Part shown: piece after piece, positions 47,678 to 50,431 of the stretch | How positions within the stretch are numbered: position 1 is the stretch's first letter | How the letters are laid out: each line of letters opens with the position of its first letter | Translations under genes and position numbers: made by a program | The notes under the pieces: model-generated | Told to the model about the DNA's origin: nothing | Database searches by the model: none | The model's input: the letters and a program-made list of their open reading frames with translations, nothing else | IMG/VR virus record: IMGVR_UViG_3300021958_000044 | Location: 16,991 to 80,990 of that record | From: a virus | Lineage: Duplodnaviria; Caudoviricetes | Strand: one strand, 5' to 3' | Length of the DNA: 64,000 bases

Positions 47678-48319
47678 TTAATACCAAATAACTTCCTTAA
47701 ATTGCTCCCGTGGAAGCCCCCAATACGCCTGTTTCCAGTCTGATTGCGCGAAAAAATCAAGATTTTTCCACTCTTCTTTACGTGATAACATCTGATTTGC
47801 GTGAAAATCCCAGTCAACATCCTTAATTCTCGCCTCAACATACTCTTTCATTAAGTAAACTTCATGTATTTCAAAGCTATCCCACTCAAAATGAAGCAAT
47901 TCGAACACATTTTCTTGTAAATCCGCGTAATCTATACTAATATCTACGCCCCACTTTGGTCTCATAGCGGCTAACTTGTTGAAAATTGGCTGCTTTTGCG
48001 CTAAAAATTGTATTTGATCTAGTGCTTCGCCGGCAAATCCGCGTCTCATATACAAATCACAGTGGTTTAGGTGTGGTCCTTCGTTGCTAATCTCTGTTTC
48101 CTCCATCCATGGCAGCTTATTTGTATACTTTATACGGTGAGGTTGTGGTTGATAACCGCTCCACATTGCATAACACTGTTCAACAACAGTCATATCATAC
48201 CCATTTTGATCAAATAATGCAATATCATCTCTAGTAAACTTATCAAGAAGCCAAGAAGGAATAGGAGTTTCCCAATATGGGTCCGGATCGTGTTGGTTAT
48301 TTGTTATCTTAAGTTGCAT
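47678..48319 (-). CDS. Hypothetical protein, last gene of the curli/cyclase operon
   Basis: 213 aa Trp/Asp-rich; overlaps the preceding ORF by 16 nt. Confidence 0.75.
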   Translation of the reverse strand: MQLKITNNQHDPDPYWETPIPSWLLDKFTRDDIALFDQNGYDMTVVEQCYAMWSGYQPQPHRIKYTNKLPWMEETEISNEGPHLNHCDLYMRRGFAGEALDQIQFLAQKQPIFNKLAAMRPKWGVDISIDYADLQENVFELLHFEWDSFEIHEVYLMKEYVEARIKDVDWDFHANQMLSRKEEWKNLDFFAQSDWKQAYWGLPREQFKEVIWY

Positions 48320-48912
48320 CTATCCTTTGCTCTATCTATTACTTTTAAATTACTATATATTGCCCATGATACTACTGCCATTGGAAAGATCATTTCTCTA
48401 TTTGTAATAGCATCTTCTTCAAATAACATTCCAAATGGAGATAAAAATATTGCCTTATGTAATAATAATCTATCTCTGCGTGGTACTCTTGGCAATAAAG
48501 GGTTTCGCTCAATAACACAATCATACTTCATACCTTCTACTGTACTCCACACATCTGCTGCATGCAGTGCATAAAACAATATTTTTACTGAATCGTACGC
48601 CGGGTCATTGACATCATACAGTGTAAATGTCGATAAGTTCCTCTTTTCCTTTAACTTTGATGCGATCAATGTGTCTGTAGCTTCTCTTTGAACTGCTTCC
48701 AGCAGTGAACTGTGATAGCAACACTCGTACCCCATCATAATTGCGGGTTTGGCCTTCGAGTCTAGCACCGAGGTTGACGGCATCTCCAATGACGGAATAG
48801 TCAAATCGAGTGGATGATCCCATGTTTCCGACGATGCAGTCGCCGGTATTGATACCAATACCAACGTCAATGCGAGGTAAACCTTGTTCTTCAAGCTCTT
48901 TAATAAGTTCAT
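48304..48912 (-). CDS. Signal-peptide/membrane protein overprinted on the adenylate cyclase 3' end (DUF5658-like C-terminus)
   Basis: Stop-free alternative frame from GTG 48924 / ATG 48912 to 48304; MNLLKSLKNKVYLALTLVLVSIPATAS signal-peptide pattern; D..T..G...E.NP motif; no ATG near the cyclase stop. Confidence 0.6.
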   Translation of the reverse strand: MNLLKSLKNKVYLALTLVLVSIPATASSETWDHPLDLTIPSLEMPSTSVLDSKAKPAIMMGYECCYHSSLLEAVQREATDTLIASKLKEKRNLSTFTLYDVNDPAYDSVKILFYALHAADVWSTVEGMKYDCVIERNPLLPRVPRRDRLLLHKAIFLSPFGMLFEEDAITNREMIFPMAVVSWAIYSNLKVIDRAKDRCNLR

Positions 48913-50431
48913 CTGCTGCTTCACTAATTTCTATTGCTGCATCTACAGCTTTGTCTGCGTGATCTTCACAAGGTAAAGGAGCGTTCCAGAACGCCATTAT
49001 ACAATCTCCCATATACTTGTCAATTGTCCCTCCATTATTTAGGATAATCTCGGTCATACGGCCAAGATACATATTAATTAATTCTACTAGCCCTTCTGGA
49101 TCATCATTGTTTTTATAATGTTCTGATACTGGAGTAAAGCCACATATGTCCATAAACAAGAATGACATATTCTTTCGCTCGCCACCTAGTTTAAGTAGCG
49201 AAGGATCCTTCTGTAATAAATATACCTGACGAGGATCCAAATAAGTACTGAATTGTTTTTTAATTAATTGTTTTTCTTTAAAGGTGATATAGTACTTGTT
49301 AAAAGAAGATTGAGCAAATACTAAAAATGCACATAGAGACAATAACGTTACATCGAAGAATAAGATGTCTGACATCCACCAGTAATACGATATGCCAATC
49401 GAGGATGCTATTAGGGCCAGAGAAGCTAACCCCGCTAGAGCTGTGGGAGCGACATAAACCACCCCCAAAATTATTAAACCAACTAACACCAAAGACGAGA
49501 GCTCGGCTACTGCAATCCAGTCGGGTCGCTGTATTTGAACTCCTGAAAGCAAGGTATGAATTAGATGGCCTTGAACTTGATGGGGATACTGTGCGCCCGT
49601 GGGGGTTGGTACTGGATTAGAATATCCTTCTGCCGTTACACCAAAAATTAAAACCTTGCCAGCTGGCAATGGATCTAAAATACTAACCGTTTCAAACTCA
49701 TTCCAAAATGCAATTGGCAATTGACTAAAACTGTCTGTCGTTATTGGATCCTGTCTACCTATTCTTACCCATTCGATACCATTGGTACCGACTTTCATTT
49801 GGTAACTTGGTTCTCCTGTGTACACTCTAGCGGTATCAAGGGCAAGTGAAGGGTACTGTACTCCATTTGCATTAATAACAAGAGGCGCTCTTCGCACGAC
49901 TCCGGTAGGTTGATCAGGAATAGCAACGGTAGCACCAACGCCGAAAGCAGCATAGCTAAGCAGATCAATGGGATAAAGTAGACCTGGAAATTTAAAGGTC
50001 CATTGTTCATTTTGTTCTCCAAATGTTGATACACCAACAAAGTTTCCAACGCCATCACTTAATTGTGTTGTTGGAGCAGAAGATAACACAACAGCTTTGT
50101 TTAAAAATGCTTGTGATAATTCCTTATCTTTTCCAAACCTATCTGGTTCAGAATAAACAATGTTCATTACATATAAACTATCGGCCGGTCCATTGTTAAT
50201 GTATTTTGCAATTATATCTCTAGGCCAAGGATATTGGCCCTCCTTTTGTATTGCCTTTTCATCTATGTTGACTAATACAATATTATCTACAAGCTCCTTT
50301 TCTTTTTCTCCTTGTAAGAAGTCGTAGTAAGAATAGGTAATGCTTTGAAAGAAATCTGGTTTAGTTATTTGCAGTGAAGCAAACAAGGTGATTGTAATTA
50401 ATACTATCCACCACTTTGTTAACCATTTCAT
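48614..50431 (-). CDS. CHASE2-domain class III adenylate cyclase
   Basis: N-terminal TM, CHASE2 (VLVNIDE..I...G.YPWPR, DQP.GVVRRAPL, YPSLAL), three TMs, then FMDICGFT, IDKYMGD and RFDYSVIGDAVNLGARLE; K and D indicate ATP specificity, N/R intact. Confidence 0.95.
   Translation of the reverse strand: MKWLTKWWIVLITITLFASLQITKPDFFQSITYSYYDFLQGEKEKELVDNIVLVNIDEKAIQKEGQYPWPRDIIAKYINNGPADSLYVMNIVYSEPDRFGKDKELSQAFLNKAVVLSSAPTTQLSDGVGNFVGVSTFGEQNEQWTFKFPGLLYPIDLLSYAAFGVGATVAIPDQPTGVVRRAPLVINANGVQYPSLALDTARVYTGEPSYQMKVGTNGIEWVRIGRQDPITTDSFSQLPIAFWNEFETVSILDPLPAGKVLIFGVTAEGYSNPVPTPTGAQYPHQVQGHLIHTLLSGVQIQRPDWIAVAELSSLVLVGLIILGVVYVAPTALAGLASLALIASSIGISYYWWMSDILFFDVTLLSLCAFLVFAQSSFNKYYITFKEKQLIKKQFSTYLDPRQVYLLQKDPSLLKLGGERKNMSFLFMDICGFTPVSEHYKNNDDPEGLVELINMYLGRMTEIILNNGGTIDKYMGDCIMAFWNAPLPCEDHADKAVDAAIEISEAADELIKELEEQGLPRIDVGIGINTGDCIVGNMGSSTRFDYSVIGDAVNLGARLEGQTRNYDGVRVLLSQFTAGSSSKRSYRHIDRIKVKGKEELIDIYTV

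Follow-up and report, generated by a model that had tools for sequence, protein, structure and literature searches.

A predicted exported protein very probably encoded in the +1 frame of the catalytic-domain end of a phage CHASE2 cyclase gene

Results

Main finding and genes of the locus

The 3' end of a phage gene for a class III adenylate/guanylate cyclase with a CHASE2 domain is, very probably, a dual-coding region, and the second reading frame, which we call B, would be a protein-coding gene of its own. Comparison of homologous phage loci indicates that purifying selection acts on both frames of the overlap. The product of B belongs to a new, widespread and unannotated protein family that is tied to phage CHASE2 cyclases.

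The source phage is uncultivated, estuarine and T4-like, and its record (81 kb) has an estimated completeness of 48%. The window, i.e. the whole stretch of DNA analysed, comprises 64,000 nucleotides of this record, and the features discussed here are collected in Table 1. The cyclase matched two Pfam families above cut-off, CHASE2 (2.2e-30, 106.5 bits) and Guanylate_cyc (9.1e-18, 64.9 bits), the latter over residues 420-599 of 605, so that the catalytic domain match runs to the C-terminus. The reading frame of B is +1 relative to the cyclase; its ATG falls at cyclase codon 507 and it extends 310 nt beyond the cyclase stop, its end being overlapped by 16 nt by the ATG of the downstream 213-aa gene. 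The neighbours of the pair are csgF, csgG, curlin-repeat and FecR genes (the gene for the FecR-domain protein lies upstream of the CHASE2 cyclase in the phage module), and no lysis genes are found among them. No PHROGs family was obtained for B, for an antisense ORF described below or for the adjoining genes. RNA-library runs contain contigs of 12-21 kb from a relative about 96% identical that span 47636-50416; these contigs are not proof of transcription and say nothing on strand, transcript ends, a separate transcript or protein.

Table 1. Position of the genes, predicted domains and candidate signals of the cyclase/B locus in the window
Feature	Position	Strand	Description or basis
Next operon gene, 213 aa	47678..48319	-	no family match; ORF call, Pfam, PHROGs
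Gene B (probable), 202 aa	48304..48912	-	DUF5658-like, predicted exported; conserved ATG to stop
B C-terminal domain, residues 105-202	48307..48600	-	DUF5658-like, three helices; after cyclase stop
CHASE2 + 3 TM + class III adenylate/guanylate cyclase gene	48614..50431	-	605 aa
Dual-coding stretch (probable), 299 nt	48614..48912	-	cyclase codons 507-605 + stop; B codons 1-100
B N-domain, residues 54-95	48628..48753	-	motif + long helix, inside cyclase gene
B spacer, residues 27-53	48754..48834	-	SETWDHPLDLTIPSLEMPSTSVLDSK; opposite most conserved cyclase motifs
Signal-peptide-like N-terminus of B, residues 1-26	48835..48912	-	sequence, hydropathy
Candidate promoter	48996..49023	-	perfect sigma-70 consensus TTGACA-16-TATAAT, ~77 nt upstream of B start
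Antisense candidate ORF, 97 aa	49327..49620	+	opposite cyclase codons about 257-376

Open frame and selection in the overlap

The original prediction, made from the window alone, had described an alternative frame that is stop-free for about 100 codons across the cyclase C-terminus and continues 310 nt past the cyclase stop, and this ORF was confirmed (48304..48924, minus strand, 206 aa when counted from an in-frame GTG at 48924). Synonymous-codon shuffles of the window cyclase contained 8.6 stops in the last 96 codons and none of 4000 was stop-free, while the +2 frame of the overlap has 9 stops in the window and 6-14 in overlap-type genes. Among 138 distinct homologous phage cyclase genes, stops in the +1 frame opposite residues 514-604 show a bimodal distribution, with none in 74 genes and 2-15 in the other 64. 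Shuffles keeping both the protein and its codon usage gave 6-10 expected stops per gene and a probability of a stop-free frame of at most 0.002 per gene, mostly below 2.5e-4, so the depletion of stops that had been proposed as a check is present among the homologues. Homologues with frequent stops, named beforehand as evidence against dual coding, do occur, but only where no B overlaps the cyclase end. As B is absent from these closed-frame loci or lies beside the cyclase, they constitute a natural control and not a refutation. At every locus of the initial scan whose +1 frame is open only 5-53 nt before the cyclase stop, no B overlaps the cyclase end: B is either absent, as in Pelagibacter phage HTVC008M, or begins at that stop (L005, L006 and L008).

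Synonymous variation, the second proposed check, is reduced in the overlap: synonymous codon identity in the cyclase frame reaches 0.654, versus 0.50 when these genes are compared over the neighbouring catalytic region and 0.45 for genes that lack the overlap. At matched cyclase identity (0.6-0.7), amino acid identity in the +1 frame is 0.505 for overlap-type pairs versus 0.308 for the others. The impression that cyclase codons in the overlap are unusually C-ending was borne out by the C3 values, which are 0.327 in the overlap versus 0.150 elsewhere in the gene for the window, 0.241 versus 0.148 for overlap-type relatives, and 0.147 versus 0.140 for relatives without the overlap. The cyclase frame itself is intact and conserved across the overlap, which takes in core motifs of the catalytic domain and the C-terminal strands; 15 catalytic-domain columns there are invariant among 60 phage homologues (G524, G526, G530, G535, G538, R542, Y545, G549, D550, V552, R557, E559, V593, K594 and G595). 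Of the two readings first offered for this region, true dual coding is thus supported by the stops, the ATG, the signal-like start and the synonymous constraint, and further by purifying selection on the second frame and by homologues that exist as separate genes.

Start site and N-terminus of B

Of 63 overlap-type loci, 62 have the ATG at the same position (MNLLK... or MKN...), and gene callers applied to homologues elsewhere gave proteins of 190-204 aa that start at the same conserved Met. AAGGA or AAGGAA precedes the ATG by 5-7 nt in many overlap-type loci; anti-SD pairing at B starts is only moderately stronger than background (mean -2.9 versus -1.5 kcal/mol), and the best decile holds 38% of the sites. 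The SD of B in the window is weak (AGTGAAGCAGCAG-ATG, -0.7 kcal/mol), as is pairing at the cyclase starts (mean -1.3 kcal/mol). As had been noticed originally, neither an ATG nor an SD lies near the cyclase stop: the first later in-frame ATG is the M of GMKYD, a start that would cut conserved helix 1, and the sole canonical alternative between the two is a TTG at L112, without SD.

The signal peptide recognised in the original prediction (MNLLKSLKNK / VYLALTLVLVSIP / ATA-SS) has, by sequence, the attributes of the Sec type, namely a positive K-rich n-region, a 13-residue hydrophobic core and small residues at -3/-1. The most hydrophobic 12-residue segment has a median hydropathy of 2.46 in overlap-type genes, compared with 0.99 for synonymous shuffles and 1.78 for non-overlap cyclases, and AlphaFold places a helix at residues 3-20. 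Upstream of the ATG, the perfect sigma-70 consensus is formed by codons of the conserved cyclase motif IDK...CIM; promoter-like sites with at least 10 of 12 matches are found in 25 of 37 overlap-type genes versus 9 of 26 others, a slight excess only. Such a site inside the cyclase gene is a possible internal promoter.

Domains and structure of the B protein

The spacer that follows the signal-like region has an AlphaFold pLDDT below 50 (residues 23-47) and is missing from free-standing B homologues, in which the signal peptide directly abuts the motif of the next domain. This N-domain carries the motif I-x-x-G-[YWF]-x-C-C-Y...[LI]..V and was modelled with a pLDDT of 82-90, including a helix at residues 68-95. 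Taken alone, it scores 15-27 bits against the N-domains of free-standing B proteins (shuffled controls, at most 4.9 bits). In the reverse test, the motif profile of free-standing B proteins matches the +1 frame of overlap-type genes only. The CCY motif was also considered as an automatic by-product of the +1 frame of the cyclase and this was rejected, non-overlap cyclases giving no match.

The C-terminal domain has a pLDDT above 95 (84 for the whole of B) and helices of 20-28 residues, and its invariant positions are D120, C132, E135, N137, P138, P144, K153, N188 and C199. The 19-residue hydropathy of these helices has a mean of only 0.5-0.9 across the B family. Foldseek comparison of the B model with the PDB returned nothing at E<=0.001, and VIA-align returned generic helical bundles only (Z <=7.0).

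Family, gene arrangements and evolution

The B family is represented in metagenomes by 119 representative matches and 249 profile matches. A tblastn search of 50,697 phage records with the 206-aa ORF gave no match, and at the DNA level the only match among phage records was the cyclase of Pelagibacter phage HTVC008M, at which B is absent. Across phages, B and the cyclase occur in three arrangements, with B overlapping, upstream or downstream. In other phages, the free-standing homologues each carry a signal peptide of their own and sit either 9 nt upstream of the cyclase or just after it; they contain the GxxCCY... motif that is encoded within the cyclase gene in the present phage. B is always encoded beside a CHASE2 cyclase, within the FecR/CHASE2 module, and no B gene was found in the 80 bacterial CHASE2-cyclase loci examined.

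The C-termini of all overlap-type cyclases group in a single clade, which indicates that the overlap arose once. It has persisted in a large clade of uncultivated T4-like phages, marine and estuarine, whose cyclases are down to about 47-50% identity. The cyclase genes are mosaics of N- and C-terminal halves, and rooting for the direction of change yielded none, as the N- and C-terminal trees disagree. A cyclase remnant, as a released overlap would leave in free-standing B genes, was looked for and not seen: the cyclase-equivalent frame of these genes gave at most 2.3 bits, no better than the other frames. No codon relic was seen at their CCY.

Alternative explanations

The open +1 frame might reflect only the conservation or base composition of the cyclase, with no second gene. 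Indeed, conservation of SETW...LDLTIPSLEMPST in the B frame is partly forced by conserved cyclase motifs, and GC-rich bacterial cyclases may show few +1 stops (0-10). However, closed-frame phage cyclases carry 2-15 stops in the same region, shuffles that preserve protein and codon usage almost never open the frame, and both the reduced synonymous variation and the match to the free-standing motif profile are confined to overlap-type genes, so that this explanation is extremely improbable. We regard as unlikely, though less so, a shorter B that starts at the internal Met-Met (an overlap of about 125 nt) or at TTG/L112, the frame upstream being untranslated. The Met-Met is highly conserved, the window lacks a strong SD at 48912 and some gene callers put the start of homologues at MGWTCCY or the DUF5658 core (P0011, P0013, P0015 and P0031). 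Against this, the frame between the ATG and the Met-Met is open in 37 of 37 non-redundant overlap-type genes versus 6.4 stops expected (P(0)=3e-4 per gene), the upstream ATG and a hydrophobic core with hydropathy above that of shuffles are conserved, all free-standing homologues have a signal peptide ahead of the motif, and a start at L112 would remove the conserved N-domain.

The other reading first offered for this region was a programmed +1 ribosomal frameshift that gives the cyclase an alternative DUF5658-like C-terminus, with no independent B. The two frames are open over 299 nt, so a slip at any point would give a fusion, and hybrid ORFs joining the cyclase frame and the B frame exist in public databases (P0019, P0043, P0054, P0038 and P0108). 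These hybrids, however, share no single shift site: the position of the frame change differs among them and some change frame two or three times, as expected of assembly indels. Slippage near the stop needs only the last few codons to be open, not 290-383 nt, and would require neither a conserved ATG nor a hydrophobic signal-like start, whereas an early shift would destroy the catalytic domain and bury the signal peptide mid-protein. GTA-TGA-T shows no evident slippery or stop-codon shift motif, and in other phages B is a separate gene on one or the other side of the cyclase and has a signal peptide of its own. The frameshift is thus unsupported and very unlikely, and a separate gene B with its start at the conserved ATG is the reading that we retain.

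A second candidate overlap on the opposite strand

The cyclase gene also contains an antisense candidate ORF, whose length among relatives is 93-125 aa. Its frame is stop-free in 62 of the 138 cyclase genes, where 4-5 stops are expected, and across it the cyclase frame reaches a synonymous codon identity of 0.69. The ATG is conserved, ribosome-binding sites of the GGAGG type are present in many relatives, and amino acid conservation in the antisense frame is about that of the cyclase. Fold searches with a model of this ORF found nothing (Z <=4.4). The chances that the cyclase gene holds three coding layers (the cyclase, B at the 3' end and the antisense ORF) appear about even.

Discussion

Comparison with known systems

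The likeness to DUF5658 (PF18902) that had been pointed out originally holds for the relatives and is weak for the window protein, which scores 14.7 bits, below the cut-off of 25.2. At E<=0.1, PF18902 matches 60 of 63 members of the B family (best 2.1e-6). Since B of the window stays below the gathering score though its relatives match, it is best called a distant DUF5658 relative. The family consists of small uncharacterised proteins of bacteria and archaea (Pfam). The C-terminal domain of B aligns to the first 52 positions of the profile, with the pattern D..(S/T)T ... E.NP, whereas the signal peptide and the CCY N-domain are additions of B. DUF5658 proteins have hydrophobic membrane-spanning helices, and the helices of B differ in being much less hydrophobic than expected of membrane spans. 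Literature searches retrieved no paper mentioning DUF5658 and none on an overlap in phage CHASE2 cyclases.

The Rz/Rz1 spanin genes in phages of Gram-negative hosts occur in embedded, overlapped and separated architectures (Kongari et al. 2018, PMC6139136). As in that system, a gene for a predicted exported protein with an N-terminal signal sequence occupies the +1 frame of another gene of the phage, within its 3' part or running across it, and this other gene encodes an inner-membrane protein. Further, the same pair is overlapped in some phages and separated in others, and disorder is predicted for the part of the second protein that is overprinted. This likeness concerns gene architecture only. 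B has no lipobox at the predicted cleavage site (ATA/SS), no spanin-like sequence and no place in a lysis cassette, and its overlap spans 290-383 nt versus 70-155 nt in overlapped spanin families (PMC6139136). Moreover, the C-terminus of the i-spanin diverges in the overlap. In the present pair, by contrast, the host frame encodes an enzyme's conserved catalytic core, and the cyclase and B can each be aligned with non-overlapping homologues through the overlap.

Bacterial operons combining FecR and CHASE2, such as BiofilmReg of Burkholderia (PMC5192318), likewise have FecR upstream of the CHASE2 sensor and contain a small uncharacterised exported protein. Their output is a histidine kinase and that of the phage module a class III cyclase, and the additional Burkholderia protein is DUF4136, not DUF5658-like. 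Overprinted genes of small viruses (phiX174 E/K/B and others; reviewed in PMC8227390) share a second frame inside an older gene and constraint on the synonymous sites of that gene. Here, however, the genome is that of a large dsDNA phage, whose size is not limiting, and the overprinted part of B is an N-terminal extension on a pre-existing domain, not a whole new protein.

Proposed mechanism and role

Translation of B would initiate at its own ATG (48912); the template would be the mRNA of the operon or one made from the sigma-70-like promoter inside the cyclase gene. Residues 1-26 would serve as a Sec signal peptide. The following ~25 residues would be disordered, a spacer that owes its existence solely to the cyclase, which requires its GxxGSxxRxDYxxxGDxVNxxxRLE motifs at this place. 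As all free-standing homologues have a signal peptide before the motif, mature B is expected outside the cytoplasm; in the cell envelope it would consist of the GxxCCY helix domain and the DUF5658-like three-helix domain. Its gene neighbourhood makes B a probable partner of the FecR/CHASE2-cyclase module in the envelope. Because it always adjoins a CHASE2 cyclase, we infer a role together with the periplasmic or membrane part of the sensor, and propose that it may act as co-sensor, regulator or assembly factor of the CHASE2 sensor. A predicted complex of cyclase residues 1-400 with mature B scored 0.00, which counts neither way.

Significance

Annotation pipelines usually suppress long out-of-frame overlaps and, to our knowledge, such overlaps are rarely documented in large dsDNA phages. 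The present one is unusually well supported by comparison, since relatives without overlap serve as a natural control group and since it extends over the core of the catalytic domain of a conserved enzyme. It indicates that the most conserved motifs of an enzyme can bear a second coding layer if this layer is a disordered spacer, the structured parts of B sitting opposite the more variable tail of the cyclase. As the pair is found overlapped, upstream and downstream, real sequences are at hand for studying how overlaps originate and are resolved. With both frames homologous to non-overlapping relatives, a single origin and mosaic cyclases, the locus, if the dual-coding reading is true, would be a natural system in which to follow how an overlap forms, is transferred between lineages and is resolved. 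The finding also points to a possible antisense gene in the cyclase locus, and the B family gives a handle on the stimuli of phage cAMP/cGMP sensors.

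Locus organisation and gene layout

The source IMG/VR record (80,990 nt, estimated completeness 48%) carries on the minus strand a Pfam-checked row of genes in the order csgF, csgG, curlin-repeat protein, FecR-domain protein, 245-aa protein (with a weak curlin-repeat match), CHASE2 cyclase, the DUF5658-like gene B and a 213-aa protein that has no match in Pfam or PHROGs. This curli-type secretion set adjoining a FecR/CHASE2-cyclase module is an unusual phage cargo. The long stop-free second frame of the original prediction is present, with 299 nt common to B and the cyclase gene and 310 nt past the cyclase stop, and the Pfam cyclase-domain match itself extends to residue 599. 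A sigma-70-like site upstream of B is built from the cyclase codons IDK...CIM of the conserved GTIDKYMGDCIMAFW motif; because overlap-type genes keep it only slightly better than the other genes do, it may simply reflect this protein motif.

Features of the cyclase/B region
Feature	Position	Strand	Description
Cyclase ORF	48614..50431	-	605 aa; CHASE2 sensor domain, transmembrane helices and class III nucleotidyl cyclase domain (Pfam)
B ORF	48304..48924	-	+1 frame relative to cyclase; 206 aa from GTG, 202 aa from ATG at 48912
213-aa ORF	47678-48319	-	Directly 3' of B; own ATG overlaps B end by 16 nt
Upstream same-strand genes	50431-55034	-	CsgF, CsgG, curlin-repeat protein, FecR-domain protein, 245-aa protein
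Sigma-70-like site TTGACA-16-TATAAT	48996-49023	-	Perfect consensus, inside cyclase coding sequence, ~77 nt upstream of B start
Antisense ORF	49327..49620	+	Opposite cyclase codons ~257-376; 97 aa here, 93-125 aa in relatives

Coding evidence for the overlapping gene

Two sets of homologous phage loci were collected: 80 cyclase loci from IMG/VR (49-67% protein identity, 79 usable) and about 160 further loci reached through B homologues. About 62 of the 79 usable loci of the first set have an open +1 frame that covers 287-404 nt ahead of the cyclase stop and some 300 nt beyond it. In 14 loci without a downstream ORF, among them Pelagibacter phage HTVC008M, the open stretch is just 5-53 nt long, and the longest opening of the +2 frame never exceeds 61 nt. 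Opposite residues 514-604, the +1-frame stops are bimodally distributed among 138 distinct cyclase genes (none in 74, 2-15 in 64). When synonymous codons were permuted with the protein and codon usage of each gene kept (4000 trials), 6-10 stops were expected and the frame was stop-free in at most 0.2% of trials, usually in 0 of 4000. The excess of C-ending cyclase codons noticed originally also holds, with C at 0.327 of third codon positions in the overlap of the window gene versus 0.150 elsewhere in it and no rise in the corresponding region of genes lacking the overlap.

The start of B is conserved as well. An ATG occurs at one of two neighbouring positions in 62 of 63 overlap-type loci, giving proteins that begin with MNLLK... 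(299 nt overlap) or MKN... (290 nt overlap), and in many of them AAGGA(A) lies 5-7 nt upstream. Pairing with the anti-SD sequence averages -2.9 kcal/mol at the B start, versus -1.5 in background windows and -1.3 at the start of the cyclase itself, and is weak (-0.7 kcal/mol) at the B start of the window itself. A start at a later conserved Met-Met is very unlikely, the segment from the ATG to this internal site containing no stop in 37 non-redundant genes against 6.4 expected. The signal-peptide-like beginning has a hydrophobic core, for which the median best 12-residue hydropathy after the ATG is 2.46 in overlap-type genes, versus 0.99 in synonymous shuffles and 1.78 at the same position in non-overlap cyclases.

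Reduced synonymous variation accompanies this stop depletion, as anticipated for dual coding: cyclase-frame synonymous codon identity in overlap-type genes is 0.654 in the overlap versus 0.50 just upstream and 0.45 in genes without overlap. At equal cyclase identity (0.6-0.7), +1-frame translations are 50.5% identical in overlap-type pairs versus 30.8% in others. The cyclase frame is intact, 15 catalytic-domain columns within the overlap being invariant across 60 phage sequences.

The B family and its arrangements

Among 1.84 billion representative proteins searched, 119 matched B, and several of these (190-204 aa) begin exactly at the B methionine of the window. In many others (160-180 aa), a signal peptide of their own leads straight into the motif [IL]xxG[FWYH]x(CC/AP)Y..[IL]..V, after which come a linker and a DUF5658-like domain with terminal RCxKR. 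A profile search added 249 homologues, all unnamed metagenome proteins, some tagged PF18902. These sequences make B a genuine protein family, some of whose members are free-standing.

Mapped to DNA, B homologues share 290-383 nt with the 3' end of the cyclase gene (O, or overlap-type), lie immediately upstream of a cyclase 33-44% identical to that of the window, with a gap typically of 9 nt (U), or follow the cyclase closely, overlapping it by 29 nt or separated from it by 67 nt (A); FecR precedes the module in the U and A types too. A fourth arrangement is found in a basal phage clade (L193, L205, L208, L216, L231), where a B variant that lacks the CCY motif (N-terminus FDRAQVEADA...) is located upstream and extends at its 3' end about 35 nt past the start of the cyclase gene.

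The O-type motif segment, 40 codons inside the cyclase, is on its own homologous to the N-domain of free-standing B: nine U-type N-termini score 15-27 bits with its profile, against no more than 4.9 bits for 870 shuffled controls. Reciprocally, the free-standing motif profile recognises O-type cyclase DNA in its +1 frame (median 15.6 bits) and matches neither the +1 frame of the remaining cyclases nor any other frame. Both proteins are thus still alignable in the overlap with their non-overlapping relatives, in contrast to overlapped spanin families, whose host protein diverges along the shared stretch.

These separate B genes in other phages bear on the programmed frameshift that had been offered as a source of an alternative membrane-bound C-terminus for the cyclase. 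Hybrid proteins joining the cyclase frame to the B frame do exist among public metagenome ORFs (P0019, P0038, P0043, P0054, P0108), but their junctions fall at varying places and several of them change frame repeatedly, a pattern expected of assembly indels; they are probably such indels, unnoticed since both frames are open. Given also the conserved start and signal peptide of B, frameshifting is unlikely.

An antisense ORF within the cyclase gene

Opposite the central part of the cyclase, an antisense frame has no stop in 62 of 138 cyclase genes versus 4-5 expected, and the other four alternative frames of this region contain 1.7-8 stops. Cyclase synonymous codon identity across it reaches 0.688 in the "open" group, versus 0.41-0.48 in residues 1-271 and 421-506 and 0.55 in residues 365-420 of the same genes, and 0.44-0.50 in "closed" genes. 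When cyclase identity is matched, conservation of the antisense translation is higher in the open than in the closed group by a factor of 1.4 to 2.7. In most copies AAGGAGG, ATGGAGG or AAGGAAC stands ahead of a conserved ATG (a GGAGG-type SD in many relatives); no promoter was identified. AlphaFold gives pLDDT 76-90 for residues 31-97, and searches including PHROGs returned no named relatives or known family. The ORF is present also in relatives without B (L007, L014, L016).

Origin of the overlap and cyclase mosaics

The phage cyclases form one clade in a tree rooted on bacterial CHASE2 cyclases, and no B gene was found at 80 bacterial CHASE2-cyclase loci (29-39% identity). Trees of the N-terminal 440 and C-terminal 165 residues conflict. 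All O-type C-termini fall in one clade of the C-terminal tree, an indication that the overlap arose once. Comparison of L005, L006, L008, L094 and L104-L106 with L096/L108 and the window indicates that A-type cyclases combine an O-lineage N-terminal part (440 residues) with a U-lineage catalytic domain and bear a C-terminal extension of about 75 aa. The cyclase genes are therefore mosaics, and the mixed ancestry and the extension point to recombination inside the gene. The B tree separates O from U. Neither a cyclase remnant nor a codon relic was found in free-standing B genes, so that free-standing B may descend from the overlapped form, or separate genes may have given rise to the overlap through duplication and deletion, as has been proposed for spanins.

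Predicted structure and role of B

The AlphaFold model of B (63-sequence alignment, mean pLDDT 84) predicts a helix at residues 3-20 corresponding to the signal peptide, disorder at 23-47, a helix at 68-95 (pLDDT 82-90) and a C-terminal domain of three helices (pLDDT >95). The disordered stretch is the part opposite the most conserved cyclase motifs and is missing from free-standing B. Residues D120, C132, E135, N137, P138, P144, K153, N188 and C199 are invariant, and fold searches with the model returned only generic helical bundles. The helices are only weakly hydrophobic, so that B may be either located in a membrane or soluble in the periplasm. In bacteria, FecR-domain periplasmic proteins are known to adjoin CHASE2 sensors. 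B, a predicted exported protein, is always encoded beside the CHASE2 cyclase, within the FecR module, and we infer from this neighbourhood that it functions in the CHASE2/FecR context.
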